DNA of 32,000 nt from Candidatus Saccharimonadota bacterium (GCA_963677765.1 OY782392.1:900001-932000), one strand, 5' to 3'; shown: positions 1 through 32,000, counted from the first letter of the stretch. Numbers and translations: made by a program. Notes: generated by a model not told the origin, from the sequence alone.

Positions 1-747
1 CCTTTGGGTATATGAAATGGTTCAACAGTTAAATATGCTGCTGATATTTTAACACAGTTTTTTATGTTGGAATGAGATGTTGAAGAGCTTGATGATGTAA
101 CTTGAAATGTTTTAAAACAATGATTAGCTTCTTATTTATTATATTGAGATATAAATTGATATAACTCATATGATTCTAGATTTTTAGAATTAACTAATTT
201 ATGAGAAAATTCTCTATATTTATTTTCTAGAGGTGATATACATATGGTTGTATGATATCCTAGTATGGTAAATGATATATCAGATTATTGATATTCTAGC
301 TCTTTCTTACAAGCAAGAGTCTTTCCACAATATTTTTCAGGTGAAGGAAATTATCTAATTAATTATAACTATTTTGTTATAAATAAAGATACAAATAATA
401 TAAATTTAGCACAAGATTTTTTATCTTATATATCAAATGATTCATGAGCTAGTGTATTTTTAAATAATTTTAAATATTACTTGCCATCACTTTTATCTTT
501 GGATGCAGAATTTTTACCAAAAAAGATTCATAGTGATTTTAATGTTGTCTTGGAAGATTTTTACGCTGATGAATATATGTTATCAAGTTTTGATAAATGA
601 ATTAAAAATATTTATGATTCAAAAATAATATCAATTTTGGATAATTGAGCATATGCAGAATCGAATTTTGAACAATTTGCTAATTCACTTATGTGTAAAA
701 CAAAAAAAATAATAAACTTTGAAAGTTTATCAAAAGACTGTAATTAG
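1..747 (+). CDS. ABC-type extracellular solute-binding protein-like, C-terminal part (5' end outside window)
   Basis: Frame +1 is open from nt 1 to TAG 745-747 only if 12 in-frame TGA are read as Gly. The tail (..GDIHMVVGYPSMVNDISDYG..NYFVINKDTNNINLAQDFLSYISNDSGASVFLNNFKYYLPSL..) resembles the C-terminal lobe of family-1 sugar-binding proteins. A hairpin terminator follows. Family call by eye only. Confidence 0.4.
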
Positions 748-754
748 TTTATTA

Positions 755-781
755 AAAACCGATCATTAGATCGGTTTTAAT
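755..781 (+). terminator. Rho-independent terminator
   Basis: aaaaccgatc / atta / gatcggtttt: 10-bp stem, 4-nt loop and T-run, 8 nt after the TAG stop. Confidence 0.8.
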
Positions 782-796
782 TTGTAATTTAAAAAA

Positions 797-1909
797 ATGA
801 AAAGTTATAATTGTTATATTCATATACCATTTTGTAGTAGTAAATGTAAATATTGTAGATTTGCATCTTTTTGAATAACTCAAAAATTACAAATTCAAAA
901 TTATGTTAATTTTTTATTAAAAGAAATTAATTCATGAAATAAACACTGACAGCTATTAGATACTATTTACTTTTGATGATGAACACCATGAGTTTTATCT
1001 TTATCTAATTTCGAAGAAATATTAACTACTCTAAGAAATAATTATATTTTTTCTAATGATATAGAAATCTCTATTGAAACTACACCAGAGAATGTTACTA
1101 TTGAAAACTTATTATGATGGAAAAAATTATGAATAAATAGAATAAGTATGTGAGTTCAAACTTTGAATGAAAAATCTTTAAAAGAAATTGATAGATCAGC
1201 TAAATGAGATATTTTACAAGCATTAGATAATATAAAAAGTGAGTGATTTGATAATTTATCTATAGATTTTATTATTTGATTACCTTATGTTTCAGCTTGA
1301 GAAATAAATGAAAATATAGACTTTTTACTAAATAAATATTCTTTTATAAAGCATATTTCTGTATATATGCTAGAAGAATATTATGATGTTCCAGAAGATA
1401 AAGAGTCAAAATTTGATAATATTACTTATCCTGACTCTTGGCATAAAACATGAATATCACTTGATGAATATGGTGAAGAATATATTTCGATAAGAAATAA
1501 TTTAGAAAAATATAATTTTAATAGATATGAAATTTCTAATTATTCTAAAAAATGATATGAATGTAAACATAATCAATGATATTGGAATCATAAGGAAGTA
1601 ATTGCATATTGATTGTGAGCATATTGATATTTAGATAATATTAGATATTCAAACAGTGAATCATTTTTAGATTATTATTCATGAAAAAATATTTCTACTA
1701 CAATTGTAAATAAAAATGATATTTTTATAGAAAATATTATGTTTATGATTAGAACTAGTTGAATAGATATATCATATTTAGATAAACTTGATAAAGAAAA
1801 AATTGATTACTTTGTAGAAAATTGATATCTAAAAAAAGAATCAAATAAAATAATATTATCTGATTCTGGAGTTGTTTATATGGATTATATTTTATGAGAA
1901 ATATTATAA
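797..1909 (+). CDS. hemW: Radical SAM heme chaperone HemW (HemN-like, oxygen-independent coproporphyrinogen oxidase family)
   Basis: ATG 797 to TAA 1907-1909, 370 aa with TGA=Gly, checked codon by codon. Has CxxxCxxC (CSSKCKYC, residues 13-20), a GGGTP motif written TGA-TGA-TGA-ACA-CCA (974-988), and HNQGYW. Confidence 0.85.
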
Positions 1910-1911
1910 AT

Positions 1912-1937
1912 AAAAAAAGAGCAATTGCTCTTTTTTT
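1912..1937. terminator. Bidirectional hairpin terminator shared by convergent hemW and hpf-like genes
   Basis: aaaaaaagagc / aatt / gctcttttttt: an A-run and T-run flank a GAGC/GCTC core. It overlaps the hpf-like stop codon (1936-1938). Confidence 0.7.
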
Positions 1938-2259
1938 ATTTACTTGATAATTCTTCTTTGAAGTGATCAAATAAGTGATTTAATAAATCATCTAAATTTT
2001 TGTAATCTTCTCTAGAATATCTAAAACTATCAACATCTAATTTAGCTGATAATACTCAGTCAAACATATCTTTTTTATTTTTTTCAACTTTTACTTCTAT
2101 AAGACCTTCAGCATCAGCTTTGTCATTATATTTTTTTAAATAATTATCTAATTTGTTTTCTAAGTTATGTTTTACTAATCTTTCAGTTGCTTCTTTAGAT
2201 TCTTCAGCGTTAACATGTATTTTTACTTGTATTTCCATATTTTCACTTATTATTATCAT
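1936..2259 (-). CDS. hpf: Ribosome hibernation-promoting factor / RaiA (YfiA)-like protein, short form
   Basis: The 67-aa track ORF 2056..2259 continues through TGA (2056-2058) to TAA at 1936-1938 (107 aa). Sequence: MEIQVKIHVNAEESKEATERLVKHNLENKLDNYLKKY...GVLSAKLDVDSFRYSREDYKNLDDLLNHLFDHFKEELSSK. Size and pattern fit HPF/RaiA but it is divergent. The start may instead be the Met codon at 2236-2238. Confidence 0.5.
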
Positions 2260-2375
2260 ATAAAAATCAAAAAAGGTTTTAAGTAATTTATAAAGGCTTT
2301 TTTACTTAACTTCTTTTTTACATGAAATATTTTATCATATTAAAATTTTAAATCAAATAAAATTTAAAAAAATAA

Positions 2376-2404
2376 TTGAAAATTACTGATATTTAGATAT
2401 AAAT
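2376..2404 (+). promoter_or_regulatory. Candidate sigma70-type promoter for gatB
   Basis: TTGAAA (2376-2381), 17-nt spacer, ATAAAT (2399-2404), about 30 nt upstream of the gatB ATG. Such matches arise easily by chance in AT-rich DNA. Confidence 0.3.
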
Positions 2405-2436
2405 ATAAATATAATTATTATTTAGTATAGTAAAAG

Positions 2437-3873
2437 ATGAATAAATATAAAGCAACTATTTGATTAGAAATACATGTAAGAATAAAATCTAAGACTAAAA
2501 TGTTCTGTTCTTGTAAAAATGCAGTAGAATTAGCTTCAGAACCAAACAAAAATGTATGTAGTGTATGTATGTGATTTCCAGGTATGTTACCAGCATTAAA
2601 TAAAGAAGTTGTTAGACTTTGACTTATAGGTGGTATGGCTATGAATTGTGAAGTTAATAAACATTCTAGATTTGATAGAAAAACATATTTTTATCCTGAT
2701 AATCCAACTGCATATCAAATAACTCAAATGTATGAACCTATAGTAGGTGAATGAAAAGTTAAAACAATTGTTGAATGAGAAGTTAGAGAGTTTTGAATTC
2801 ATCATATGCATTTAGAAAATGATGCTTGAAAATTAATACATGCATGAGGTAAAACATTATGTGATTTTAATAGAGCTTGAAGTCCTTTAATGGAAATAGT
2901 TACAGATCCAGTTTTTCATACAAAAGAAGAAGTAATGGAATTTTTAAAGGAAATTCAAAAAATCATGAGAGCATGTAATGTTAGTGATGCTGATATGGAA
3001 AAAGGTCAAATGAGATGTGATGTTAATATATCAGTTGCTCCTGAATGAAGTGATAAGCTATGAGCTAGAACAGAGACAAAAAATGTTAACTCTTTTTCTG
3101 CTATTGGTAGAGTAATAGATCATGAAACAAAAAGACAAATAAAAATTATTGAATCAGGATGAGTAGTTGATCAAGAAACTAGATGATGGGATGATGATAA
3201 ATGAGTTTCAGTTACTCAAAGAAGTAAAGAAGATGCTATGGATTATAGATATTTTCCTGAACCTGATTTATTAGATTTAAACTTAGACGATGATTTTATA
3301 GAAGAAGCAAGATCTACTATTCCAGAATTACCAATTGAAAAAAGAATTAGATATTTAAATGATTTCAAATTATCAGAAGATGATGCTAGATTATTAACTA
3401 CTGATAGAGCCTTAAGTGAATATTTTGATACTTTGGTTTGATTAACTAATGATGCTAAAAAATCTTGTTCTTATATCACTACTATATTATTGGCTATGAT
3501 AAATGAATCAGAAGATATAAATAGTGTAAGTGAATTAAAATTTGATATAAAAGAATTAGCAAAAGTTATAGAGTTAGTTAACAAAGATGAATTATCAAGT
3601 ACTAATTCAAAACAAGTAGTAGAAGAATTATTTAATAATTGATGAGAAGCAGATATTATAGTTGATGAAAATAATCTTAGACAAAAAAATGATATGTGAG
3701 CTTTAGATGCTATAGTCGATGAAGTATTAGCTAATTGTAGTTCACAAGTAGAAGATTATAAAAATGGTAATGAAAATATATTTGGTTTCTTTGTATGACA
3801 ATGTATGAAAGCATCAAAAGGTCAATGAAATCCAAAAATATTTAATGAATTATTAAAAGAAAAACTAAAATAA
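2437..3873 (+). CDS. gatB: Asp-tRNA(Asn)/Glu-tRNA(Gln) amidotransferase subunit B
   Basis: 478 aa with TGA=Gly, N-terminal half checked codon by codon. Motifs: ATI-G-LEIHV (Gly = TGA 2461-2463), CSVCMGFPGMLP, HLENDAGK, RGWD (TGA 3184-3186 beside TGG 3187-3189), YFPEPDL. The track ORF 3238..3441 is in frame. Confidence 0.95.
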
Positions 3874-4004: not shown

Positions 4005-6314
4005 ATGATAAATAAATTATTAAATATTTTTTCAAAAAATAAAAAATCAATATTTTTTATATTATTTTTTGTTTTTGCTTTTTTTGCATTTAGTGATATT
4101 TCTTTTGCAAATGAAAGTTGAAATTTATTAGATACTGAAACAAAAGAAAAGATATGAGAAGCTATTAGATGGATTTGATCAACAATTGTTGTTTTTTTAT
4201 CTATTCTTACATATTTATGAGTTATGTTTTTATCTCCAGAATGGATTAATGGTAGTCTTTTTGGTTTAAATGAGTATTTCAAAGATATATGGATATTGGT
4301 TTCAAATGTAGTATATTTTATATTTGCATTTATCCTTATATGGATAGCATTTATGAATATTATTTGAAAATGACAAGATAAATATCAGTTAAAACAAGCT
4401 TTGCCTAAGTTTTTGATATGAATTCTTATAGTTCCTTTATCATGGTTTATTGTTAATTTTATATTGTCAATTTCTGCTATATTAACTGTAGCAGCTATTA
4501 ATTTGCCTTTTGATACATTTCAATGATTCAATAGTAAAATATCAGAAGTTGATATTCCAAATGATTGTAAGATAGATCTTACAAAAGAATCATGAAATAA
4601 AGATGCTAATTGAAATACTCCTACTAAAAAATATTTTTCTTGTGTTGATGAAAAAGATTGATGAAAAACTGTTAAATTAAAAGATATAATGAATTCAGAT
4701 AACTCTAGTACAAAAATATTTTGAGTTCTTTGAACTTATGCTTATGGTGTTTTGTGATTAGAAAGTTTAGACTATTTAACTGATTTTCAAACTAATACTA
4801 TAAAAACTATATGAGATTTAATTGTAAAACTTGTTTTTGATGTATTGTTTATAGTTGTTTATGCTGTTTTGATGATAGCTTTAGCATTGGTTTTGATGAC
4901 TAGATGAATATATATATGGATATATTTAATGATATCTCCTGTATTTGGTTTGATGTATTTTTTTGATAAATCTAGTTGAGGTTGAGAGTTTTTCGATAAA
5001 TTCAATATAAAACAATTTATATCTTTAGCTATGGTTCCTGTTTATACAATGTTAGCATTAACTTTTGGTTTATTGTTTATATTTGTTGTATGACAATGAA
5101 TGGTTAGTGGTAATACATCTAATTCTTTTCCATGACTTCAATCAGTTAGTATTAAATCAAACAATGATAATGAAAGTAGTACATTAACTATAGGTTCATG
5201 ACAAGATGACGATAAAAAATTTAAATTAACTATTGTCTGAGCAGCTGCAAGTGAAAAAAATATAACTGAAATATGGGACAGGGTTAAGACTGAATGAAAC
5301 TGATGATTGGGAGTAATTTGAACTCTTATAATGAAAATATTTGGTATTGTTATATTATGGTGAGCTGTTATGGCTGCTCTTAGATCAAATGATGTAACAA
5401 AAGCTGTAGTTGAACCACTTCATGCATTTGGTACACAAGTATGACAACTTGCTGCTAAATCGCCACAATATATGCCTTTATTTTGAGGACAAAGTATGCA
5501 AAGTTTGAAGACTATTCAATGATCTATTGAATGAAGTATAAATCAATGAGCTAGAGATAGGGCTACTAATTTTACTTCAAAATATATGCCGTTTTTAGAT
5601 GCAGATTCTACCTGAAGAAAGGCTAATATGGAAACACTGCATAACAATTTAAAAACATGAAACTACTCTTCTGCTGACACTCCTAGAACACTTAAACCAG
5701 CTTGGATAGAATATTTGAAAAATATTCAAGATACTGAATGAGCTAGAAGATTAGATACTGAAGATGTACTTAAAGAATTTGCAAGAAAACTACAAGTTGA
5801 TATAAGTTGAATAAATTTTAATAGTAGAGCATGATATGCTGATGCTATAAAAAGAATAGAAAATCGTTTTGATTGAGATAGTGTAGGATGAGTTTTAGAT
5901 TGAGATGTTAGTTCTAATGCTTCATTGTGACCAGATGATATAGATAGGTTAATAAGATGAGTTTCTTCTAATTGATGAAATAACCAACAAAATAATTGAT
6001 GAAATAATCAACAAAATAATTGATGAAATAATCAACAAAGTAATCAACAAGATAATGTTGCTAGTCAAACTAGGACTGTAAATATAAATTTAACTGATAA
6101 TTGAATGAGGCAAATAGATTTATCATGAGTTGAATGAATTTCAATAACTGATGAAGATATAACAGCTATAAATTCTATAAATGATGTAAATTGAATGACA
6201 AAAGTTGGTTTCTCAAATAAGTTAAGAGATGTTGGTATTTCAAATAATAAAATTGATCCTATTATTAATTATTTAGTAGAAAAATGAATAACTTTCTCAG
6301 ATAATAATAATTAG
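4005..6314 (+). CDS. Large multi-pass membrane protein with signal peptide and Q/N-rich C-terminal domain (TrbL/VirB6-like topology; function unknown)
   Basis: ATG 4005 to TAG 6312-6314, 769 aa with TGA=Gly; first ~550 nt checked codon by codon. N-terminus MINKLLNIFSKNKKSIFFILFFVFAFFAFSDISFA looks like a signal peptide. At least 7 hydrophobic segments follow (e.g. IWILVSNVVYFIFAFILIWIAFMNII, LIVKLVFDVLFIVVYAVLMIALALVLM), then a ~330-aa hydrophilic tail containing (GGNNQQNN)x3. Confidence 0.7.
5970..6053 (+). repeat. In-frame 24-nt tandem repeat (3 units plus a partial unit) encoding N-G-G-N-N-Q-Q-N
   Basis: Units aattgatgaaataaccaacaaaat (5970-5993), aattgatgaaataatcaacaaaat (5994-6017) and aattgatgaaataatcaacaaagt (6018-6041), then the partial unit aatcaacaagat. 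Each full unit carries two TGA codons. Confidence 0.9.
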
Positions 6315-6332: not shown

Positions 6333-6362
6333 AAAAAAAAAATCCCTTATAGGGATTTTTTT
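6333..6362. terminator. Bidirectional hairpin terminator between convergent genes
   Basis: A-run / tccct-tat-aggga / T-run. The minus-strand CDS stop (6347-6349) lies inside the hairpin. Confidence 0.65.
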
Positions 6363-7501
6363 AGTATAAAATCATTTATATCTATAATTTCTAATTCTTC
6401 ATAAATTAGCTTTTTGATATTTAATTCTTTTAAATTTTCTACTAGAAGATATTTTTTATTTTTATCTCATATTTTTAATAACTTATTTACTTCTTTTTTT
6501 ATTTCAGAAGATTCTTTTTCAGATGATATATGTATGTATATAGTATTATCTTCTTTTTTTCATATGAAACTAAATTCAAAAACTCAGTTTTTTCATCATA
6601 AAATATTATAATTGTTATATTTTAATAGTATAAAAATTAAGTTTTCTATTAAAATATTTTTATCTAATCAAAAATTAGTTAGGTAATTTCTGATTCCATT
6701 ATCTCAAAAATAATATTTATTTTTTCAGTTAATAATTTTATTTTTTTTGAAATCAAATAATTCTATCTTATGTATTATTTTTTCTTGTACACTAAAGTCT
6801 ATATAATCATAAAAAGTCTTAGGTGCTATTTTTCCTGCTTCGCTTATATCTCTTAATAACTCTCTATTTGATTTAAATATATTTAAATATGCTAAAAATG
6901 TAATTGTATAATAATACAAATCTATATTTTTAACTCATTTTAAATTAAAAATACTATCTGTTATTATTTTATTAGTAATTAATTCTAGTCATATTTTTTT
7001 ATCTTCAATTAGTTTTAATTTTTTAATTGATCAATATTTTATTGTTTTATTTATATCTGTGCTATCTATTTTTTGAGTTATTTCAAAGTTTTTTATATTG
7101 GGTATTATAATATCGTTTCATATTATTATAATTTTCTTATCTAATTTATAATATTTTGATAAAAAATCTTTTATTCATTCTACTTTTCAACTATTTTGTA
7201 TAAAAATATATTTACTTTCTTTAATATTGATATAGTTCTCTATATCAATATTTGATTTTATTAGATTATGTTTATCTAGACTTTTGTTTAGATATGTATA
7301 ATTTTCTCATATATTTGTTTTTTTTATTATATTTGCTAGATATAATTCTTTTCATGATTCTTTCATTCATGAAATAATGGTTATTTTTTCTTTATTTATA
7401 TTTTTTACAATATCTGATAATGTATTAATATTTATATTTTTATCATTTATATTGTTTATAAAATCTATATTAATTTTTAATAATTCTTTTAAATTGTTCA
7501 T
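6347..7501 (-). CDS. COG1373-type AAA+ ATPase-like protein (AAA_14 + DUF4143 architecture) with degenerate Walker motifs
   Basis: 384 aa. I checked the whole minus frame for TAA/TAG and found none, and track ORF 6725..6919 is in frame. P-loop-like ISGMKESGKE, Walker-B position YIFIQN, YYFGDNGIRNYL (DUF4143-like), and a C-terminal GGKNGVFEFSFI...IYIHISS module. Confidence 0.65.
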
Positions 7502-7673
7502 ATTTAATATTACAATATTTATGTTTTATTTTGATTGTTTTTATTATTAATATTTTATATTAAAAGTCAATTTTTTATCTTAAATATATATTTACTCTTA
7601 TGTAAAGCTTATTTTTTTGACTAAACTTGTTTTTTTATTTTAATAGAATTACTTTATTAATTTAATACTATAT

Positions 7674-9011
7674 ATGAGGTATTTAATTTTTGCATTATAC
7701 GTTATTTTAGCCTTGGTTTGAGTACATTTATTAGTATGATCTAATTTATCGACTCAAGCCAATTTCTTTTTATTACTTGCTGTATTTTTATGAATTTATA
7801 TGGCAGTAAATATTTGAGCAAATGATGTTGCTAATAGTGTTTGACCTGCTGTTTGATCTGGAGCTTTAAAACTTAAACATGCTATAATAATAGCAGCAGT
7901 TTTTGAATTATTATGAGCTGTTATTGCATGATGAGAAGTTGTTAAAACTGTTAAAAATGGTATCATTGATGTAAATATGATTGATAATGTATCTGTATTT
8001 ATATTTATAATGATGGCTGCTTTGTTTTCAGCTGCTGCTTGGCTTAATTTGGCTACATATTTCAAAGCTCCTGTTTCAACTACTCATTCTATAGTTTGAT
8101 GAATTATGTGAGCATGAATAGCTGCTTTATGATTTTGAGTTGTTGATTGGTGAACAATGTGAAAAATTGTTTCTAGTTGGTTTATATCTCCATTATTAGG
8201 TTGATTAATTGCAGCTTTGTTTTTGTATCTTATAAAAACATTAATTATTTTTACTGATGATAAGGTTTCACAGTCAAAAAAATGGGTTCCATTTTTTGTT
8301 GCTATTATGGCTTGGGCTTTTATAACTTTTTTAGCTATTAAGTGACTTAAGCATATTATTAGCATAGATTTTATATTTGCTTCTCATATGTGACTTTTAG
8401 TTTGATTTTTTGTTTACTTTTTTCTTAGATCTAGTATATGAAAGAAAACATCAAAAATTTCTAATGATAGAAAATGAGTAGCTAAACTTTTTAATATTCC
8501 TCTTGTATTTGCAGTTGTTTTATTGACTTTTGCTCATTGATCAAATGATGTAGCTAATGCTATTTGACCTTTGGCTGCTATATATGATTCTTTGGTTAAT
8601 TCTTGAATAAATTGAAGTGTTTGAGTACCTTTTTGGATATTACTTTTATGATGAACAGGTTTATCTTTTTGATTGCTTCTTTTTTGACCTAGAATTATAA
8701 AGGCTGTTGGTACTGAAATCACAGAATTAGATCAAATTAGAGCTTTTTGTATAGCTTTATCTGCTGCTATTACAGTTATATTGGCTAGTCAATTATGATT
8801 ACCTGTAAGTACTACTCATGTTGCCATTGGTTGAGTTTTTTGAGTATGATTTTTAAGAGAATATCTTCATAAAAAACAACATGGTAAAAAAGAAAAATTT
8901 GTTCAAAGAAATATGATGTTTAAAATTATTTCTGCTTGGTTAATAACAGTTCCTATAGTAGCATTTATTTCTTGAATGTTCTTTGTATTATTCAATTTTA
9001 TGTTTATATAA
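7674..9011 (+). CDS. pit: Inorganic phosphate transporter, PiT (PHO4) family
   Basis: 445 aa, checked codon by codon. Carries the duplicated PiT signatures GANDVANSVGP and GSNDVANAIGP, VSTTHSIVGG / VSTTHVAIGG, and many hydrophobic segments. The three minus-strand track ORFs here are antisense shadows. Confidence 0.9.
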
Positions 9012-9095: not shown

Positions 9096-10844
9096 ATGGA
9101 AGATAAAATTATTTCTTTATTAAAAGACTTAATAAAATCACAATATGATATTGAAATTGATAATATCAAGCTAGAAATACCGCCTAAAAAAGAACTTTGA
9201 GATTTTGCATTTGGAGCTTTTTTATTATCAAGAGATTTAAAAAGAAATCCAAATCAAATAGCAAATGAAATAAAAGATATTTTATTATCAAATGATTTAA
9301 TAGAAAAAGCATCAGTTGAATGACCTTATTTAAATATATTTGTTAATAAATCAAGCTTTAATGATTTATTTTTGAGTACTTATAGTGATGATTATTTTAA
9401 TAAAATCTCTTCATTTTGAGATAATAAAAAAATAGTTATTGATTATATATGAGCAAATGTAGGTAAACCACTTCATATTGGTCATATGTGTACTCCAAAT
9501 CAATGACAAGCAATGATTAATGCTTATAAAAAACTTTGATATGATGTTATTTCAGATAGTCATATAGGGGATTGGTGAATAATTTTTGGTAAACTTATTG
9601 CTGCTTATAAATTATGGTGAGAAGAATCTAGATTAAAAGAAAATGCAGTTGATTATCTTTTGGAATTATATGTAAAAATAACTTCTGAAATTGAAGAAGT
9701 TTGAGAAGAATTAGAACAAAAAACTAGAGATGAATTTAAATTATTATCTTCTTGAGATACTGAATCTATAGAACTATGGAGAAAATTCACTAGTTATTCT
9801 ATAGATGCTATGAATCAACAACTAGCAAGACTAAATGTAAAACCTGATTACAATATTTGAGAAAGTTTTTATGAAGGATTATGACTTCCAAAAATGGAAG
9901 ATTATCCAGATTTAAAATACGATATGCATTTTATAGTAAATGAATTAGTTTGAAAAAATATTGCAACAAAAAATGAAGATAATTCAGTATGAGTAAATTT
10001 TGATGAATCAAAAAAAATACCAAGTTGTATATTACAAAAAAGAGATTGAACACATGGTTATTTGGCATCAGATTTAGCAGCTATAAAATATAGAGTTGAA
10101 AACTGGAATCCTGAAAAAATAATATATTTTGTTGATGTAAGACAACAAATGCATTTAAAACAAGCATTTGATATTGCTAATTCTGCTTGATGGCTAAAAA
10201 ATACAGAATTATTCCATGCTTATAACTGATTTATAAGCTTAAAAGATTGAGCTATGTCTACTCGTAAAGGTAGAATTATAAAACTAGATGCTTTATTGGA
10301 TGAATCAGAGAAAAGAGCAAAAAATATTATTTTAGAAAAAAGAGATGATATTTCTTGAGAAGAACTTGATAATTTATCAAAGATAATTTGAACTTGAGCT
10401 ATTAAATATTGATATTTGAAAAAATCTAGAGAAAGTGATGTTATATTTGATTGGGATGAGTTTATGAGTTTTGAGTGAAATAGTTGACCATATATTCAGT
10501 ATGCTTATGTTAGATCTATAAGAATATTAGAAAACTTTTGAGATGATATAGATATTAAACATAATATAGTTTTTGAAAACGATGAAGAAACTGATTTGAT
10601 AAAAACTTTATCTAATTATAGTGATATTCTTATCGAATCTACAAAAACAAACTCTCCTCATATTCTATGTAAATATGCTTATTCTTTAACTAAATCTTTT
10701 AATTCTTTTTATAATAATGTTCATATTTTAAATGAAGAAGATTTAGATAAAAAATTATCAAGATTAAAATTAGTTAAACTTTTTTGAATTATTTTAAAAG
10801 ATACATTTTCTATTTTATGAATAGATATGCCTAACAAAATGTAA
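9096..10844 (+). CDS. argS: Arginine--tRNA ligase
   Basis: 582 aa. Motifs: HIGH-type KPLHIGH, HIGDWG (TGG 9573-9575 next to TGA 9576-9578), and a C-terminal ...MPNKM end. The track ORF 10596..10787 is in frame. Confidence 0.95.
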
Positions 10845-12460: not shown

Positions 12461-12494
12461 GACTATCTATATAAGTAATAATAATATTATTGCC

Positions 12495-22261: not shown

Positions 22262-22262
22262 A

Positions 22263-22289: not shown

Positions 22290-22345
22290 TTTATTTTTTA
22301 AAATAATGTTATAATTTTTTTAGTTAATAATATTTTTCATTTTTT

Positions 22346-23185
22346 ATGATAAAAAAACTAAAGAAATTATTTAAGTATGATAAATCAGAATATGAAAATA
22401 TTTTGGATGACCCTAATTCAAAATTAGGGAAATTTTTGGATACTTTTATATTGTCTTTGGTTCTGATATTTCCATTGGTTTTGATATTTGAAAGTATCTG
22501 ATCAAATGCTATAGCTTATGAAAAACAAATATTTGTTTTTGATTTTTTTATATCTTTGGTTTTTGCTTTAGAATATATATATAGATTAATAAGAGCTAAA
22601 AATTGATTAAAGTTTATAATTACTCCTATTAGAATTATTGATTTGCTTTCTTTTTTACCTTTCTTCTTATGACTTTTTACATGAGGATTATTCAAGATTT
22701 TAAAAGTATTAAGAATTCTTAGAATTTTTAGACTTTTAAAAAGAATACCATTAACATCAGGTTTTATAAACTCACTAAAAAGTTATGCAGATGAATATTT
22801 AGCTGTGTTTACTTTGTATTTTGTAGTTTTATTTATATGTTCTTTTTTGGTATATTTCTTTGAGAGTAGTATTCCAGGGAGTGATTTTACATCTATTCCT
22901 CAAGCTCTTTGGTGGTGAATAGTTACAACTGCTACAGTTTGATATTGAGATATTGTACCTGTTACTTTGTATTGAAAAATAATATGATCTGTACTTGTTT
23001 TTTTATGACCGTTACTTTGATGACTTATTTCGGCAGTTACTATTATGGTTTTTATGGAAACATCAAAAGAGCATGATAAGCTTAGAGATGAATCAAAAAG
23101 AAGAAAAATTTGTTCTAGATGTAAAACTAGAAACCCTAAAAAAGCAAACTACTGTATGAAATGCTGACAAAAATTTTTAAATTAA
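22346..23185 (+). CDS. Voltage-gated-type (6TM) potassium channel with C-terminal zinc-ribbon
   Basis: 279 aa, every codon checked. S4-like LKVLRILRIFRLLKR; pore ALWWGIVTTATVGYGD, with both filter glycines as TGA (22940-22942, 22946-22948) and TGG-TGG-TGA at 22910-22918. Tail is CSRCKTRNPKKANYCMKCG. Confidence 0.85.
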
Positions 23186-23212
23186 AATAGCTTAAATATA
23201 AGCTATTTTTTC
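23184..23212 (+). terminator. Rho-independent terminator after the channel gene
   Basis: aaaatagctta / aata / taagctatttt followed by a T-run. Confidence 0.7.
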
Positions 23213-23278
23213 TTTACAAAAAAATAAATACTCATATTATAAAAAACATAATTAATTGATTATTAAAAAAAATAAAAA

Positions 23279-25015
23279 ATGAAACAAAAATTTTATATAA
23301 CAACTCCTATATATTACTGAAACTGATTACCTCATGTAGGTCATTTTTATACTTCTAGTATTGCAAATATTATTTATAAATATCACAAAATATCATGAGA
23401 AGATTCTAGATTTACTACTGGTATTGATGAGAATAGCCAAAAAGCAGTTATAAAAGCTGAAGAAGCAAATATGTGAATAATGGAATATTTAGATCATATG
23501 GCTTTTGAACATAAAAAAGTATGGGATCATTTTAATTTTGATTATACTGATTTTATTAGAACTACTAGTGATAGACATCATAAATTAGTAAGAGATGTGT
23601 TAGCTCATTGTCATGATAAATGAGATATATATGAAGGTGAATATGAATGAATGTATTGTGTATGATGTGAAAGCTTCAAAAAAGATGAAGACTTAGTATA
23701 TATGAATAAAACTACTGGAGAAACTTTTCCTATAACTGACAAAGTTAAGCCTAGTGATAATATTATAAAAGTATGTCCTGATCACTTAAAAGCACCTGAC
23801 CAAATAAAAGAAAAAAATTATTTTTTCAAACTTTCAAAATATCAAACTTGGTTAGAAGAATTTTATGAAGCTAATCCTAGTTTTGTAAATCCTGATTTTA
23901 GATACAATGAAGTAAAAGCATTTGTTTCTAGAGGATTAGAAGATTTTTCTATATCAAGAGAAACTAATAGTTTTGGTATACCTTTACCATTTGATGAATC
24001 ACAAGTTACTTATGTTTGGTTTGACGCATTATTTAACTATTATACAAGTTGTAAATATAGTAGATGATGAGATAAAAATAATGAGAATTTTATAGATGAG
24101 TCAGATTTTTGGATTAAAAAAGATAACTCTTCAAAGGTGATGCATTGTGTTTGAAAAGATATTATAAGATTCCATGCTATATTTTGGCCAGCTATGTTAG
24201 CTTCATATTTTGACTTAGGTAAAGAAGTAAATTGAGTTATTCATTTTGATAAAGAAAAAGATTTTTCATATTTACCAGATCAAATATTAACATGATGATT
24301 TTTTACTGTAGATGGTAAAAAAATGAGTAAATCTTTATGAAATGTTATTGAGCCTATTGAGTATAGTGATAAATATAATAAAGAATTATTAACTCTTTAT
24401 ATGTTATCAGCTTTTACTATAGGTAGAGATTGAGATTATGATAGAAAAGATGCTATTTTGAATTATAATTCAAAAATGGCTAATAATTTCTGAAACTTAT
24501 TAAATAGAGCAGTTGTTCTTACTATGAAAATGGATTTAGCTGATTGATTGTTTTCTGAATTATCAAGTGAATTTTCAGATGATAATAGTTATGATTTAAA
24601 TATTGAATGAAATGAAATTATAGAATTTAATTGATCACTTAATTGATATAACTATTACTTTTCAAAATTTATGTCTGAAAATAATCTAAAATGAGCTTTA
24701 GATTTAACATTTAAGTTTCTTGATAGTTTAAATAATTATGTTACAAAAAAAGAACCTTGGACATTGATGAAAGATGACTCAAAAATAGAAGAAGTAAAAG
24801 AAATAATGTATACTATCTGTGAATGATTGAGACAAGTTTCTTTAAATCTTTATCCATTTTTTTCAGAAAAAATGATTCAAGTATTAAAAGCTTTAGGTTT
24901 AGATTATTATACTAGATTAGAAGCTTGAGAATTTAATGATATAAGAAATGAAAAACCTAGTTTTATTATAAAAGAAAAAGCACCTATTTTATTTGAAAAA
25001 TTTGATGTAGAATAA
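23279..25015 (+). CDS. metG: Methionine--tRNA ligase
   Basis: 578 aa. Motifs: TTPIYYGNGLPHVGH (TGA at 23318-23320 and 23324-23326), zinc knuckle CVGCE...CPDH, and KMSKS (GKKMSKSLGN). The track ORF 23702..24067 is in frame. Confidence 0.95.
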
Positions 25016-25016
25016 T

Positions 25017-25301
25017 ATGATTACTATAAAAAATGCTTCTTGAGAAGTTATAAAAACTATTGAAGCTGATTTAACAAAAACTTTATTAAAACAATTGGAA
25101 GCAGAATGAGTATCAATGGCTGCCGCTTGTTATACTGGTATATGTTGAGCATGTATGTGTCAAATAGAGGATGGTGAAGAAAATATAAATAAATCATTTA
25201 GATGAGAACCATGATTCCCTTTGGGTAATGATGAGGTTATGACATGTATAGCATGAGTAAAAGACAAAGATAAAGATATTGTTTTAAAAACTATATATTA
25301 A
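25017..25301 (+). CDS. Plant-type [2Fe-2S] ferredoxin
   Basis: 94 aa starting 1 nt after the metG stop. ACYTGICGACMC (Cx4Cx2C) plus a distal MTCIA Cys form the classic 2Fe-2S ligand pattern. Confidence 0.8.
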
Positions 25302-25333
25302 AAAAAAGAGACTTTTTTAAAAGGTCTCTTTTA
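25302..25333. terminator. Bidirectional terminator (ferredoxin / small membrane protein convergent pair)
   Basis: aaaagagacttt / tta / aaaggtctctttt. It overlaps the minus-strand stop at 25331-25333. Confidence 0.75.
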
Positions 25334-25654
25334 TCTTCTTCTAGGTCTACCAGAATAATCCATTGTTTTTGGGTCATCTAGATATTCCTCAACATATTTT
25401 TTTTCATCATCACTTAGATTTTCATAATTATCTATCATTTCTTGAACACTATAATATTTATGAGCTTTGTTTTTTTCATTTCTTCTTATCATAAATATTA
25501 ATATTGCTATTAAAACAACATCAACAATTCCAGAAACATATAGAGAAATTTGTGTATCATTGATAATGAAACCATTAACTATAATAAATGTTATTCCATA
25601 TATAATAAGTAAAATAATTATTAATAGAAATAATCCTTCCATAGCTTTTGCCAT
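25331..25654 (-). CDS. Small membrane protein (2 predicted TM helices, charged tail), function unknown
   Basis: 107-aa ORF from the track with no TGA. GLFLLIIILLIIYGITFIIV and VSGIVDVVLIAILIFMI are followed by an acidic/basic tail. AAGGA lies about 8 nt upstream of the ATG, one of the few SD-like sites in the window. Confidence 0.6.
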   Translation of the reverse strand: MAKAMEGLFLLIIILLIIYGITFIIVNGFIINDTQISLYVSGIVDVVLIAILIFMIRRNEKNKAHKYYSVQEMIDNYENLSDDEKKYVEEYLDDPKTMDYSGRPRRR

Positions 25655-25720
25655 AATTTATCCTTTTGTTTTTATTTTTGTACAAATTATATTAACTATA
25701 AAATAATTATTTGTCAAATT

Positions 25721-25745
25721 AAAAGTATGACTAAGTCATACTTTT
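25721..25745. promoter_or_regulatory. Perfect 11-bp inverted repeat (candidate operator or orphan terminator)
   Basis: aaaagtatgac / taa / gtcatactttt sits in the divergent intergenic region, about 77 nt upstream of the RHH-domain gene. A T-rich stretch follows on the + strand. Confidence 0.4.
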
Positions 25746-25821
25746 TTATTTTTTACTTTGATTTTGTTTTATTAATTATTATATTTAGCTTTGTTACAAA
25801 TATTTATTTAAATATTTATTT

Positions 25822-26643
25822 ATGATAAATAAAGAAAAAATAGCTATTTCTATAGATAGTGTGCTTTTGGAAAAAATAGATGAAAAAGTTGATAAAATCA
25901 ATTTTAAAAGTAGATCAAATGTTATAGAAAGTCTTATAAGAGAGTGATTAAAACTAAAAGAAGATATTTGATGACTTATAATTGCAAATGATAATAATTG
26001 GAATGATAGTGAGTATCCTTTGGATATACCAAAATGTCTTATTGAAATAGATTGAGTTACTATACTGGAGAAAAATATAAGTATATTAAGAAAATCAAAT
26101 ATAAATAATATATATATCGCTATATGACATAAAAAACAAATGATAATAGATTTCTTAAAAAGAAAGTGACTATATGATAAAGTTAATCTTTTAGAATTTA
26201 ATTCTTCAGATATGACTTGAAAAGTTGTTTATGATTCAAAGTTATTTCAAAAATATAATAAATTAGTTGTATTTTTATGAGATAATTATCATCATGATTT
26301 TAATTTATTAGATTTTATCTATTACCATAATACTAGTAATACTCATTTATCTGTAGTTGTTCAACCTATTGATGCATCAAAGTGATATTGAAATATAAAA
26401 CTAGAGTGAAATAATATAGTTAGGTTTGTAGAAAAACCAGCTACAAAAGAAGATATTTCTTTTATAGTTAATACTGGTATCTATTTGATAGATTCAAAAG
26501 TAATTCCAGAAAATAAATGAAACTCAAAACTTGAAACTGATTTTTTTCCTGATTATGTTCAATCAAATAAATCAAAAGCTTATTTTCATAATTGAAAATG
26601 GTTTCATATGCAAGATAACAAAACATTAAATTTATTTAAATAA
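25822..26643 (+). CDS. Ribbon-helix-helix (CopG/NikR-like) domain fused to a nucleotidyltransferase-like domain with a degenerate active-site loop
   Basis: 273 aa, every codon checked. The N-terminus KEKIAISIDSVLLEKIDEKVDKINFKSRSNVIESLIREGLK follows an RHH pattern. The remainder aligns by eye to sugar-1-phosphate nucleotidylyltransferases (DIPKCLIEIDG, FLGDN, GYGNI, RFVEKP, NTGIY, ETDFFP). LIIANDNNWND replaces the usual LAGGxGTRL loop. Confidence 0.7.
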
Positions 26644-26655
26644 TATAAAAATATT

Positions 26656-27072
26656 ATGACAAATATAAATATAGCTAGCAATGAAAATTTTATAACAGAA
26701 GATGATGTATATTTACATACATATAATACAAGATTGCAAAATCTTTTTGTGTATATATCAGAATTAACATCTATCGATATTAGTCATAAGGTAATAATGG
26801 ATAACTTTAGCTTTTGAGATTATACTATAGATGCTTTCAATTGAGAACATATGGATTATTTTCTTGATACTAATTCAAGCTGATACGAAGTTTTTTCTGA
26901 GTTTAAGCCAGAGGATTTAATAAATGAATCAAATATTGAGATATTAAATCATATAATGACTTGAGAATTAAGAGTAGCTTTTATTGATAATTATGAAAAA
27001 ATATTACTTTTGAATAAAACGATAAAAACAAAAACTAGTGAAAATGTTGCAGAAATTTTATATCTAAATTAA
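26656..27072 (+). CDS. Hypothetical acidic protein (138 aa)
   Basis: Open frame with 4 in-frame TGA, every codon checked. It lies 12 nt after the preceding stop and ends 8 nt before galU. I recognise no motif. Confidence 0.55.
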
Positions 27073-27080
27073 TTATAACT

Positions 27081-27953
27081 ATGTCTAAAGTAAAAAAATG
27101 TGTTATTCCAGCTGCTGGTATGTGAACTAGATTTTTACCAGCAAGTAAAGCTCTTCCAAAAGAAATGTTTCCTATAATAGATAAACCTGTTATGCAATTA
27201 TTGGTTGAAGAAGCAATTAGTGCATGATGTAATGATATTATTATTGTTACAGGTAGAAACAAAAGAGCTATTGAAGATCATTTTGATTCAAATTTTGAGC
27301 TTGAAAAAAAATTAGAATCATCTAATAAATTTGAAAGCCTTGAAAAAGTAAAAATGCTTAATTCTATGGCAAATATTTCATATATAAGACAACCATATCC
27401 AAGATGAGATTGAGAAGCTATATTGAGAGCTAAAAATTTTTTATGAAATGAACCATTTTTAGTTTTATTTTGAGATGATATTATTGATTGAGAGAAAACT
27501 GCTGCTCAACAATTAGTTGAAGCATATAATAGAAAAAACTGTCCTGTAATTGCTACTATTCCTGTTAGTGATGAAGAAGTTTCTAGTTATTGAGTTATAG
27601 AAACAAGTCTTAGAGATGGTAAAAGCTTTGTTGTAGATAGATTTTTGGAAAAGCCTAATGCGAATGAAACAAAATCTAGAAATTGAGTAGTAGGGAAATA
27701 TGTATTAAATAGTGATATTTTTCCATACTTAGAAGATGCAGCATCAAAAAAAGTTAGTTGAGAAATAAGACTTGCTGATGCTTTTGAAATGATGAGAAAA
27801 GACAAAGATATATATTGATTAAATATAGAATGAGATAGATTTGATACTTGAAGTAAAATCTGATTTTTAAAAGCAACTATAGCTTTTTGATTGAAAAATA
27901 ATGAATTAAAAGATGAATTAAGAAATTATATAAAAAGTTTAAATATAAAATAA
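27081..27953 (+). CDS. galU: UTP--glucose-1-phosphate uridylyltransferase
   Basis: 290 aa, every codon checked. Motifs: [22 protein letters not shown] (Gly = TGA 27123-27125), [24 protein letters not shown], and GDRFDTGSKIGFLKA. Confidence 0.92.
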
Positions 27954-27954
27954 T

Positions 27955-29238
27955 ATGATTAAATTAGATTTAAAAAATTTGCTTTTTCCTATTGGTTTTT
28001 TAAACCTAAAATATTGATATAAAGCAAGACAATCTATTAGATGAATAAAGCAAAAACATGAACTAGGTCAATTATGATTTATAGATTTAGATATAAATAA
28101 TGATATAGAAAAAATAAATGATTTTGTATCAAAAACAAAAAATAAATACGATGATGTTGTTGTTTTGTGAATATGATGAAGTGCTTTATGAACTCGTAGT
28201 ATATTTACTGCTTTGAAATGAAAATATTACAATTTATTATCAAAAGAAAAAAGAAACAATTTTCCAAAACTACATATATTAGATAATGTTGATCCTATAG
28301 AAATAGATCAGTTAATAAATATTTTGGATTATAAAAAAACACTTTTTATAGTTATATCAAAATCATGATGAACATTGGAAACAATATCTCAGTTTCAATT
28401 TTTTAAAAATCAGTTAGAAAATATTTGAATCGATTATAGAAATCATTTTGTAGTTGTTGCATGAGAAGATTCTATCTTTAAAAAAGAATGTCTAAAAAAA
28501 TGATTAGAAGTTTTTGATATACCAAATAATGTTGGTTGAAGATTTTCTGTTTTTACAAATGTTTGATTATTACCATTAGCTTTTGTTTGAATAGATATAA
28601 AATGATTACTCTCATGAGTAACAAAAAGTAAAAAATCATACTTAGATGAAGATATGATGAATAATCAAGCTCTTTTAACTTCACTAATACAATACCATTC
28701 ATATATAGAATTGTGAAAAAATATTACAGTCTTTTTTCCATATATATCAAACTTTAATTATTTATGACAATGGTATAAACAAATGATTTGAGAAAGTCTT
28801 TGAAAGTGATGAATTTGAGTTACTCTTTCTGACTCTATATGAGTAACTGATCAACATAGTCAATTACAATTATACTATGATTGACCAAATGATAAGCTTA
28901 TAATGTTTTTGGAGTTAGAAGATTTCCAAGTTGATTATGATATATGTTGTAATGAGAAATTTAGTTTTTCAAATTTGATGCATACAGAAAAATATTGAAC
29001 AGAAACATCTATAACTGAATACAATAAAATTAATTATACTTTGAAACTAGATAAATTAAATGAAGAAACTCTTTGAGAACTTATATTATTCTTTGAGTTT
29101 CAAACAGCTATATTATGAGAACTTTATGGATTTGATGCTTTTGATCAACCAGGAGTTGAAATATGAAAAAAGATAACAAAACAAAGGCTTATAGAAAATA
29201 TTTGAAAAATTGAGCTTTTAGAATGAAAAATTAACTAA
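27955..29238 (+). CDS. pgi: Glucose-6-phosphate isomerase (short bacterial/archaeal type)
   Basis: 427 aa, every codon checked; by hand count 33 in-frame TGA against 5 GGN. Motifs: VVVLGIGGSALGTRS, ISKSGGTLET, VGGRFSVFT, and DQHSQLQLYYDGPND. It starts 1 nt after the galU stop. Confidence 0.9.
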
Positions 29239-29244
29239 AATAAA

Positions 29245-30393
29245 ATGAAAGAACAAATTAAAATAACTACTATATGATGATGAAATTGACAATCAAATTT
29301 ACTTGATTGACTTAATAGTTACTTTTGAGATGAAGTAAAAATCTCATCTATAGTATCTATGAGTGATGACTGAAGAACTACTTGAGTTTTGATGAAGGCT
29401 TTCAATGATAAACTAAATATACATCTACCTCCTCCATGAGATGTTAGAAGATGTTTATTCTCTTTATCAAAAAGTAAATACAAAGAACAATTTCAAATTT
29501 ATTTTGAACAAGAAATAACTTTGGATTGAGATATAAAAGATTTTAGTATAAAAGATATTTTATTATCACTTGATTCATCAAATGATTTTATAGAATATAT
29601 TTCTAGAGAAAAAAAAGACTTTTTAGATTTTTTTATACCTTTGGGTATAAAAATTAAATGACATAAATTTTGAAATATATTAATGGCATCACTTTTTTAT
29701 AACTATAATCAGGATTATGATAAAATGTTGGATTTTTTACATAATATGATGGAAGTTTGATGAAAAATAATACCAGTAACTATAAAAAGAGCATATATAA
29801 AAGCTATTTTATGAAACTGAGATGTTATTGAAAAACAAGATAATATATCTAATGTTGCTAATTATAATTCATGAATATCAGATCTTCGTTTGATGGATTG
29901 TTCTATTGATGCAGATCATACAAAACAAGTACATGATGCTATTGTTGAATCTAATTACTTGATAATTTGACCTTGAGATTTATATACTTCTATTATTTCA
30001 AATTTTATAATTTGATGAGTTAAGGATTCAGTTAATGATTCTGTTTCAAAGATTATATATATTTGAAACTCAACAAATAAATGATGAGAAACAACATGAC
30101 TTACACAACTTGATTTTTTAAACAAAATAGAGCTGTTTTTATGAAAAAAAGTTGATTATTTTGTTTTAAATAATTCAAAACCTAGTCTTAGTGATGATGA
30201 AAAAGAAGTTTTTAAAAATGATATATCTGTAAAATGATGAGATTATTTATTTTTATCAGATATAGAAAGAGAAGAATTATCTAGAAGATGAGTTAATGTA
30301 TTAGAAACTGATTTATTGTGAGATAATAAGACTTATAAATATGATAAGAAAAAAATAGTAGAATCATTATCTAAAATAATTTTTAATAAATAA
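29245..30393 (+). CDS. yvcK: YvcK/CofD-like (UPF0052) gluconeogenesis / cell-envelope factor
   Basis: 382 aa, every codon checked. Motifs: TTIGGGNG (TGA x3 at 29275-29283 plus 29287-29289), SMSDDGRTTGVL, GHKFGNILMA, and IIGPGDLYTSIISN. Confidence 0.88.
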
Positions 30394-30395
30394 AT

Positions 30396-30740
30396 ATGTA
30401 TATATTTTTGCACAATTCTAGATGTAGTAAATCTAGAGAAGCTCTAAAAATAATGGAAAAATCAAAAAAGAAATATACTCTTAGAGAATATTTAAAAAAT
30501 CCATTAGATCTTGATGAATTAATTTCTTTGCAAGAAAAACTTTGATTGAGAGCTATTGAGTTTACAAGAATACAAGAAACAGAATTTAAACAATCAAATT
30601 TAACAAAAGAATCTAGTGATATAGAAATACTAAAAGCTATGAGTAAATATCCAAAACTAATGGAAAGAGCTATTGTTTATAACGATAATTCTGCTATAGT
30701 ATGTAGACCTGTTGAAAAACTTAATGATTATTTAAAATAA
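30396..30740 (+). CDS. ArsC/YfgD-family (glutaredoxin-fold) reductase-like protein
   Basis: 114 aa: MYIFLHNSRCSKSREALKIM...LMERAIVY..AIVCRP. The HN(P/S)RCSKSR motif is typical of the ArsC family. It starts 2 nt after the yvcK stop, and the track ORF 30546..30740 is in frame. Confidence 0.8.
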
Positions 30741-30744
30741 TTAT

Positions 30745-30779
30745 AAAAAAATAACTTTGCATTTGCTAGTTATTTTTTT
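30745..30779 (+). terminator. Rho-independent terminator ending the galU-pgi-yvcK operon
   Basis: aaaaaataact / ttgcatttgct / agttatttttt followed by a T-run. Confidence 0.55.
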
Positions 30780-30812
30780 ATTATATAGTTAATAAAATTA
30801 ATACTTATAAAT

Positions 30813-31211
30813 ATGAATATATTTTCATGAAATATTACTCTAGATGGTAATAAAAAAATAGACTTAGATTTTGATTATATAGAAAGTATTTCAAAATCTG
30901 GGAATAAAATATTATTTGTTTTTTGAGAAACTGAATTAAAAACAAAAAATGAATTAATATCTAGCTTAGAAAAATCTGTTTGAAAGATAATTAACTATGA
31001 TATATCTATTAGTAGTGAATCAAAAATAGATATTTTGAATTCTGCATATGAAGAATGAATTTATGAAATAGCTAGTTTTGAGTGAGAAGAAGTTACTTTT
31101 GATGAAATAGTAGATAGATTTAAAAACTTTGAAGAAGTTATATCTGTAAGAGAATCAGAAATTTCTCAAAAGTTTTGAAATAAAACAATAAAAGTAGATT
31201 TTGTATATTAA
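30813..31211 (+). CDS. Hypothetical protein (132 aa)
   Basis: Open frame with several in-frame TGA, ATG 30813 to TAA 31209-31211. No recognisable motif and no TM segment. Confidence 0.5.
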
Positions 31212-31230
31212 TAATTAAGATAAATAAAAA

Positions 31231-31488
31231 ATGATAAATATAGTATATTCTGATATGTGTCCTTATTGTGATATGGCTAAATCTTTACTTGATTCTCTAT
31301 GAATAGAGTATAATGGTATTGATTATACATGACAATTTGATAAAGTAGTCGAATTAGCATGAGTTACTTGAATGAGAACTATACCTCAAATCTTTAATTG
31401 AGATGTTTCAAGAGAAAATCTTATTTGAGGATATACTGAGTTAAAACAGTTAGTTGATGAATGAAAATTAGAAGATTTATTAAAATAA
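31231..31488 (+). CDS. Glutaredoxin (CPYC type)
   Basis: 85 aa, every codon checked. Active site SDMCPYCDMAK, then TIPQIFNGD and GGYTEL, which are canonical Grx motifs. Confidence 0.85.
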
Positions 31489-31489
31489 T

Positions 31490-32000
31490 ATGGAGATATA
31501 TATACATATTTGAACAAATTTAGAATATTTCGACCTTTTAAATGAAGGTAATTTACTTTCAAAATGAAAGCAAGACAGAGAGCTTGCTTCTTTTTTCATG
31601 AAAAATTTTCCTTGAGAATTAGCGACAACAATTTCTCCTCAATATGAAGTTAATTCTGTTTGAATAAGAGAAATAAAAAAGAAGTTTTGAGTAGATGCAT
31701 TTAACAAAATAGGAGGGATTTATTATTGAAGTGATAATTGTGAATATTTAACTCCTACAAAAAAAGAAATAGAAGATGCTATAGAAAAATTTCAACTATT
31801 TAATAAAAATTTTCCACCTCATAGAGTCAGAACTTTTACATTGGTTACTCCTTATGTATGAGATAAAATGCTTGACAGATTAGAAGAGTGATTAGAGTAT
31901 TTAAATAATTTAAATATAAAAAATCCTATAGAAATTGTAGTTAATGATTATTGAGTTCTAAATCTTATAAACAAAAAATATACTAATTTGAAACCAATTT
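31490..32000 (+). CDS. Peptidase U32-like protein, N-terminal part (3' end outside window)
   Basis: Open from ATG 31490 to the window edge, starting 1 nt after the grx stop. GVDAFNKIGGIYYGSDNCEYL..EIEDAIEKF..TLVTPYV..IEIVVNDYGVLNLI recalls the U32 family layout. This is a weak call made by eye. Confidence 0.35.

Follow-up and report, generated by a model that had tools for sequence, protein, structure and literature searches.

Coding structure of the window

The subject of this analysis is the codon UGA (TGA in the DNA), which is read as glycine in the genes of a stretch of 32,000 nucleotides (nt) recorded as Candidatus Saccharimonadota bacterium (GCA_963677765.1, OY782392.1:900001-932000); the whole of this stretch is called the window hereafter. 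The window has a GC content of 23.4% and carries, once TGA is taken as a sense codon, 30 back-to-back coding sequences (CDSs), 25 of them on the plus strand, which are listed together with a single tRNA gene in table 1. An independent gene set gives this number of CDSs and a coding fraction of 94.8%, and both values agree with a preliminary description made by a model from the sequence alone (30 CDSs, about 94% coding). Considering that the gene content includes aminoacyl-tRNA synthetases (aaRSs), rpsO, PBP2, relA and pgi, the window is part of a chromosome and not of a phage or a plasmid.

Under the standard code (NCBI table 11) the longest open reading frame (ORF) from start to stop has 121 amino acids (23702-24067) and is a piece of MetRS. 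Stop-free frames of at least 100 amino acids add up to 2.9 kb under table 11 versus 40.5 kb when TGA is sense, the latter figure being a sum across six frames in which overlapping frames are counted, and the longest ORF then reaches 784 amino acids. Long ORFs appear only with TGA as sense, and tables 4 and 25 share one ORF map; a six-frame scan of the window with TAA or TAG as sense did not restore them. The CDSs end in TAA (27) or TAG (2), one runs past the end of the window, and both triplets are missing from the gene frames that carry TGA. Pfam matches of the window proteins mostly span near-complete domains and in several genes reach within a few residues of the C-terminus, for example in GatB, ArgRS, M48 and S15. 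Termination occurs at UAA and UAG only.

The 30 CDSs contain 513 in-frame TGA, 145 GGN (GGT 104, GGA 26, GGG 14, GGC 1) and 64 TGG codons. The glycine fraction of all codons is 6.5% when TGA is included, as opposed to 1.4% for GGN alone; in relatives, two GC-rich ones excepted, it is 5.4-7.6%. The preliminary description had given the same length for the longest standard-code ORF, the same stop counts and, for pgi, 33 TGA against 5 GGN, and all of these numbers were reproduced.

The amino acid at UGA

The preliminary description had placed in-frame TGA on invariant glycines of several motifs (IGLEIH in GatB, GGGTP in HemW, HIGN in CysRS, YGNG in MetRS, GxGTR in GalU, TVGYG in a K+ channel, KSG in a penicillin-binding protein (PBP) and GGGNG in YvcK), with TGG beside TGA in RGWD, GDWG and WWG, and had concluded that TGA encodes Gly and not Trp, and that the code is not table 4. 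Every motif coordinate turned out to be exact (table 1), and the conclusion is borne out by the GatB columns, the comparison of Pgi with a solved structure, the Pfam scores and the codon interchange among relatives.

The residue opposite TGA was followed in GatB. The window protein was aligned, with TGA masked as X, to a reference set of 37 genes from organisms without an in-frame stop under table 11, among them Peregrinibacteria, Paceibacterota, Lachnospiraceae and Rickettsiales. In these homologues Gly accounts for 56% of the residues in the 20 TGA columns, where Trp is at 0%, and for 63% in the 11 GGN columns; the only TGG column has 86% Trp. Log-odds summed over the 20 TGA columns amount to +47.6 bits for Gly, -26.3 for the runner-up Ala and -60.2 for Trp. 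In Pgi, compared with the solved Thermotoga PGI (2q8n), a count by eye gave Gly at 20 of the 28 aligned TGA positions and Trp at none.

Scoring TGA as Gly also beats scoring it as Trp in all 17 Pfam domains tested, which belong to ten proteins. The scores as Gly and as Trp are 371.6 and 254.1 bits for PHO4, 224.2 and 140.5 for the transpeptidase domain of the PBP2-type protein, 115.3 and 57.5 for PGI, and 165.6 and 80.4 for CofD (yvcK). For YvcK itself a homologue search returned, among the matches listed, only close relatives of the Gracilibacteria type and no standard-code homologue. Taken as a whole, UGA in the window is a sense codon, and it stands for glycine and not for tryptophan.

Synonymy of UGA and GGN

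The ORFs of 43 Gracilibacteria-type loci were compared with the window codon by codon. Among 2,784 aligned pairs that involve a window TGA, the partner is GGN in 943 and TGA in 865, and it is never TGG; the window TGG faces TGG in 82% of its pairs. At shorter distance, a JGI metagenome contig (3300031933, Ga0326349_1000485; our L082) is 96.0% identical to window positions 19242-32000. The two differ in 427 codons, of which 14 involve TGA; 11 of these 14 are exchanges between TGA and GGN, and none is an exchange between TGA and TGG. In 15 tabulated loci the sum of TGA and GGN per GatB stays within 27-36 (31 in the window), two standard-code relatives included, while between 0 and 24 of these glycine codons are TGA. 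UGA and GGN can stand in for one another.

TGA accounts for 78% of the glycine codons of the window, so the description of UGA as the main glycine codon holds as a count. It does not hold as a special trait, since the preponderance of UGA is a by-product of low GC that is common to most low-GC relatives. The TGA share falls as GC rises: with three exceptions, loci with GC of at most 0.27 lie at approximately 63-84%, and relatives with GC of at least 0.37 at approximately 6-31%, which is the pattern predicted by AT pressure on a synonymous pair. The heavy use of TGA for glycine in code-25 bacteria has been remarked on earlier (PMC10746230).

The TGA share is uneven among the window genes (chi-square p approx. 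7e-6), with 14 of 29 glycine codons in the pilin gene, 0 of 3 in rpsO and 30 of 31 in yvcK. An expression-linked avoidance of TGA, considered for rpsO and the pilin gene, was abandoned as a general explanation, as the pattern does not recur consistently among relatives: rpsO of one relative (L042) has four TGA and no GGN codons. At the other end of the GC range, two loci labelled 'Patescibacteria group' (L023, gatB at 2075-3505, and L040, gatB at 6949-8379) have a GC content of 56-57%, a GatB identity of 61-62% and no TGA in gatB; these GC-rich lineages may hardly use UGA or may have the standard code.

Taxonomic position

The best GatB matches are metagenome-assembled genomes named 'Candidatus Gracilibacteria bacterium', with identities of up to 81%. 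Among the approximately 40 top matches, with identities of 46-81%, the majority bear the title Candidatus Gracilibacteria; looser labels (Peribacteria, Patescibacteria group or bacterium) mark the remaining ones, and the gatB of most of these that were tabulated contains in-frame TGA. No Absconditabacteria title occurs among the GatB matches listed. Judged by best hits and record labels, the window is assigned to Gracilibacteria (BD1-5), and this places it in one of the two clades with documented use of table 25 (Gracilibacteria/BD1-5 and Absconditabacteria; class JAEDAM01 in GTDB), both of them named in the preliminary description. Code usage is not tracked by the record labels 'Gracilibacteria', 'Peribacteria' and 'Patescibacteria'.

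tRNAs, release factors and a proposed mechanism of reassignment

Two relatives (L034 and L035), the gatB genes of which carry in-frame TGA, have a tRNA with the anticodon UCA approximately 15 nt upstream of tRNA-Gly(GCC). Its sequence, GCGGGGG...CCCCCGC-U-CCA, contains G1:C72, C2:G71, G3:C70 and U73, that is, all four elements of the identity set used for tRNA-Gly(UCA) by Shulgina & Eddy (PMC8629427). These calls were made with ARAGORN and the Rfam tRNA model; the tRNA(UCA) scores 43.4 bits on the general Rfam model, and the minimum-free-energy fold of the L034 copy did not give a cloverleaf. The two genes (L034 11100-11270, L035 20981-21150) form a tandem pair of glycine isoacceptors with different acceptor stems, GCGGGGG and GCAGACA. 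tRNA-Trp(CCA) is retained in six relatives.

Neither prfA nor prfB, the latter being the gene of release factor 2 (RF2), lies within the 32-kb window. According to Sieber et al., prfB is undetected across the available BD1-5 genomes and prfA is present (PMC6851277). At the level of protein, Hanke et al. obtained for BD1-5 97 peptides unique to the database with UGA as Gly, 3 unique to that with Trp and 0 unique to that with stop (PMC4032931). By analogy with the relatives and this literature, the organism of the window would possess tRNA-Gly(UCA) and tRNA-Trp(CCA) and would lack prfB.

The following mechanism is proposed. A dedicated tRNA-Gly(UCA) with the bacterial glycine identity set would be charged by GlyRS and decode UGA, and tRNA-Trp would keep the anticodon CCA, so that UGG remains tryptophan. 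The loss of RF2 would leave UGA free of competition. Once UGA had become glycine, a mutational bias towards AT would have turned most GGN codons into their AT-richer synonym UGA.

Several observations weigh against this picture. The 32-kb window contains no tRNA(UCA), its only tRNA being tRNA-Phe, and the two relatives that carry tRNA(UCA) are only 53-55% identical to it in GatB. Approximately 44% of the residues in the GatB TGA columns of distant homologues are not Gly; the GGN columns are alike in this respect (37% non-Gly), and the figure can therefore be put down to ordinary divergence. Finally, isolated peptides in the study by Hanke et al. (PMC4032931) had a residue other than Gly at UGA, and for this reason a low-level ambiguity at UGA may exist. 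The best explanation as a whole is nevertheless that UGA serves as a normal codon for glycine (NCBI table 25), with UAA and UAG as stops, in a member of Gracilibacteria where tRNA-Gly(UCA) and the loss of RF2 would provide the mechanism; we assign it a probability of about 0.96.

A possible second reassignment, CGG

The preliminary description had identified the code as table 25. This is right as far as UGA is concerned, but the code may differ from plain table 25 in that CGG looks like Trp. The CGN codons of the window are few: CGT occurs nine times, CGC is absent, the lone CGA belongs to a stretch spuriously added to the 5' end of the rpsO ORF, and CGG occurs once, as codon 480 of the RelA/SpoT homologue (13896-13898, context PNPF-CGG-ISFVKT). 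This codon aligns with an invariant Trp of the solved Rel proteins (...GPSQDWVKL... in 6yxa, ...GPSRDWQGF... in 8fr8). Of 11 relatives, 9 have TGG at the orthologous position, and the other two, L003 and L017, have CGG.

CGG was then tallied across the loci with the longest non-overlapping ORFs only, a restriction that removes antisense ORFs. An unfiltered tally had also given an AGG-to-Trp signal at 27 sites, which is an artefact: conserved antisense ORFs turn the proline synonyms CCT, CCA and CCG into swaps among AGG, TGG and CGG, and no Trp was left for AGG after such ORFs had been removed. In the filtered tally, the loci with GC of at most 0.27 have CGG on six Trp-majority and no Arg-majority columns, whereas those with GC of at least 0.31 have it on no Trp and 18 Arg columns. 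The six low-GC occurrences represent four distinct orthologous sites, one of which is TGG in window gene 4005-6314. The control codons fall almost wholly on Arg (Arg/Trp sites: CGA 160/1, CGT 235/0, AGA 1234/1, AGG 133/0), and L003 uses CGG five times, yet CGA, CGT and CGC not at all.

These data suggest that, in addition to the table 25 change, CGG stands for Trp in this organism. On the one hand, the position of the only in-gene CGG of the window, its TGG orthologues, the split between low-GC and higher-GC loci, the controls and the codon usage of L003 all point in this direction, in agreement with the prediction of CGG=Trp by Codetta in some Gracilibacteria (Shulgina & Eddy 2021; PMC8629427). 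On the other hand, the window provides a single CGG and the whole comparison four distinct sites; scans of the window, of the 43 Gracilibacteria loci and of L082 gave no tRNA(CCG); and L002, which is equally close in GatB, has one CGG on an Arg-majority column. Alternatively, a tolerated substitution of Trp by Arg may have been inherited by three lineages. We regard it as rather probable that the table 25 reading has to be extended by CGG=Trp, the presumed decoder being a tRNA(CCG) that arose from tRNA-Trp, with the other GC-rich CGN codons nearly gone. The fuller proposal, that CGG has been recaptured as Trp in a low-GC sublineage while higher-GC Gracilibacteria keep Arg, that CGA and CGC are effectively unused, and that the code is thus not plain table 25, has in our view slightly better than even odds.

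If this is true, the clade would be a live case of stepwise, GC-driven codon capture, and the correct translation of low-GC Gracilibacteria would require a code for which there is no NCBI table. The CGG-to-Trp signal is the sole part of the present results that touches an open question, namely the extent and patchiness of the second reassignment in Gracilibacteria.

Alternative codes, known systems and annotation

The SR1/Gracilibacteria code (table 25) is said to go back to Campbell et al. and Rinke et al. in 2013, and NCBI gave this UGA=Gly code a table of its own soon after that year. The finding that UGA is glycine is thus already known, and our result is a confirmation, not a discovery. 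The window agrees with table 25 in its glycine at UGA, its tryptophan at UGG and its restriction to two stops, UAA and UAG; the users of this table have low-GC genomes of approximately 1 Mb, as does the organism of the window with its best matches in Gracilibacteria, and relatives of the window carry tRNA(UCA) with glycine identity. Nothing essential differs. The TGA share of the window is at the high end and matches that of low-GC relatives (mostly 63-84%), and the CGG of the window may be reassigned, which table 25 lacks. The GTDB holds several hundred table-25 genomes (gTranslate preprint).

With regard to CGG, the nearest counterpart is the Codetta prediction of CGA and CGG as Trp in Absconditabacteria, and of CGG in some Gracilibacteria (PMC8629427), which resembles the window in that CGG is very rare and located on conserved Trp columns. 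The CGA-to-Trp part of the Absconditabacteria code has no parallel, as CGA is without a Trp signal in Gracilibacteria and absent from the real genes of the window.

Table 4, where UGA is read as Trp through tRNA-Trp(UCA), is the other code that fits the ORF boundaries, which are identical to those of table 25. It is found in Mycoplasmatales/Entomoplasmatales and in several insect endosymbionts (Hodgkinia, Nasuia, Zinderia, Stammera), and these systems resemble the window in their sense UGA, in the AT-rich reduced genome and in the loss of RF2, which is expected to have opened the way; public pipelines have, moreover, rendered proteins of this genome with UGA as Trp. They differ in the amino acid inserted at UGA, and the tRNA-Trp of the relatives of the window keeps CCA. 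A tryptophan reading would imply 5.7% Trp and 1.4% Gly among all residues. It is also opposed by the absence of Trp from the GatB TGA columns, by the loss of score in every Pfam domain tested, by the complete lack of TGG opposite the window TGA codons and by the motifs in which TGG adjoins TGA, and we consider it highly improbable. The standard code, with the TGA codons as real stops in a region that is non-coding, pseudogenised or subject to occasional readthrough or selenocysteine insertion, has in its favour only that it is the default assumption, and it is still less probable, as the 513 TGA codons occur in one frame per gene within homologues of essential proteins (aaRSs, GatB, PBP2, Pgi) that have their full length and complete domains and from whose frames TAA and TAG are absent, TGA is kept or exchanged for GGN in relatives, and the tRNA(UCA) of the relatives matches the general tRNA family of Rfam and no other family there (best match only where families overlap).

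These distinctions have practical consequences. The preliminary description had called any standard-code annotation of this DNA invalid, and table 11 does break up every gene of the window, but the commoner real-world error is translation with table 4 in public collections. As the fallback of density-based heuristics, table 4 gives Trp at approximately 8% of positions in, for example, YvcK. The public protein collection contains the TGA-containing proteins that were sampled, YvcK, glutaredoxin and HemW (genes at 29245-30393, 31231-31488 and 797-1909), only with TGA as Trp, and the Gly versions are absent; rpsO is the only window protein with a code-independent public copy. Of the best 120 YvcK-family matches, 91 have a Trp content above 4%, a mark of translation with table 4; GGGNG appears there, for example, as 'TTIWWWNWQ'. 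Entries sourced from NCBI carry Gly. The table-4 fallback heuristics are described in the gTranslate preprint, and the high-Trp public entries are consistent with them. Mistranslated public entries will contaminate alignments, hidden Markov models and structure predictions.

Gene content and further observations

The features of the window are compiled in table 1.

Table 1. Features of the 32,000-nt window, with in-frame TGA codons and the motifs in which they occur.
Feature	Position	Strand	Remarks
Solute-binding-protein-like CDS, 3' part	1-747	+	12 in-frame TGA; TAG stop
HemW-like radical SAM CDS	797-1909	+	TGA 24, GGN 2; GGGTP written TGA-TGA-TGA at 974-982 (TGATGATGA)
Small CDS, no Pfam match	1936-2259	-	1 TGA; kept in 16 relatives
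gatB	2437-3873	+	TGA 20, GGN 11; Gly of IGLEIH at 2461-2463; RGWD at 3184-3189
Large multi-pass membrane protein (769 aa), no Pfam match	4005-6314	+	55 TGA
AAA_14/DUF4143-like ATPase CDS	6347-7501	-	17 TGA; both Pfam matches under curated cut-offs
PHO4-family phosphate transporter	7674-9011	+	37 TGA
argS	9096-10844	+	27 TGA; GDWG written GGG GAT TGG TGA at 9567-9578 (TGG-TGA at 9573-9578)
SAM-dependent methyltransferase	10848-11516	+	7 TGA
Type IV pilin-like CDS (N_methyl motif)	11534-12361	-	TGA 14, GGN 15; lowest TGA share of the larger genes
relA/spoT homologue	12459-14726	+	32 TGA; sole in-gene CGG of the window
CGG codon, RelA/SpoT codon 480	13896-13898	+	On invariant Trp following the TGS domain
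rpsO (S15)	14760-15029	-	TGA 0, GGN 3
CDS, no Pfam match	15210-16577	+	TGA 21, GGN 2
PBP2-type transpeptidase	16594-18936	+	51 TGA; KSG at 18676-18684 (TGA at 18682)
tRNA-Phe(GAA)	19039-19113	-	Sole tRNA of the window
Thioredoxin-like 2Fe-2S ferredoxin	19196-19489	+	TGA 5, GGN 0
cysS	19476-20939	+	17 TGA; Gly of HIGN at 19587-19589
M48 (HtpX/Ste24-like) peptidase	20915-22261	+	13 TGA
Voltage-gated-type K+ channel	22346-23185	+	13 TGA; TGA for both filter Gly of TVGYG (22940, 22946) and for Gly of WWG (22910-22918)
metG	23279-25015	+	23 TGA; TGA at both Gly of YGNG (23318, 23324)
2Fe-2S ferredoxin (Fer2)	25017-25301	+	6 TGA
Small membrane ORF, no Pfam match	25331-25654	-	TGA 0, GGN 5
Nucleotidyltransferase	25822-26643	+	TGA 13, GGN 1; weak RHH-like match ahead (20.2 bits, cut-off 20.5)
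CDS, no Pfam match	26656-27072	+	4 TGA
galU-like NTP transferase	27081-27953	+	15 TGA; Gly of GxGTR at 27123-27125
pgi	27955-29238	+	TGA 33, GGN 5
yvcK/CofD family	29245-30393	+	TGA 30, GGN 1; GGGNG at 29275-29289
ArsC/Spx-family CDS	30396-30740	+	1 TGA
CDS, no Pfam match	30813-31211	+	6 TGA
Glutaredoxin	31231-31488	+	7 TGA
CDS, 5' part, no Pfam match	31490-32000	+	9 TGA; runs past the window end

The gene for the large membrane protein at 4005-6314 is conserved and adjoins gatB in relatives too. It contains a 24-nt in-frame tandem repeat at 5969-6044 (3.2 copies, 96% match), which encodes NNGGNNQQ, and the GG of each unit is spelled TGATGA.

GC-rich codons have almost disappeared from the window: CGC and, in real genes, CGA do not occur, CGG and GGC occur once each, and the further rare codons in all CDSs are ACG (1), TCC (2), CTC (2) and TGC (2). 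Arg is almost wholly encoded by AGA (268). Several neighbouring genes meet closely or share a few bases (19476-19489, 20915-20939, 25011-25017 and 30390-30396), and every one of these junctions has a TAA stop; the ATGA start/stop overlap that is frequent in standard-code bacteria is unusable under the code of the window. Beyond the right end of the window, L082 carries a tmRNA gene (19240-19693; tag AFKNALNPSFVAA) approximately 7.5 kb past that end and after uvrB, and a tmRNA is probably present at the corresponding place in the source genome.

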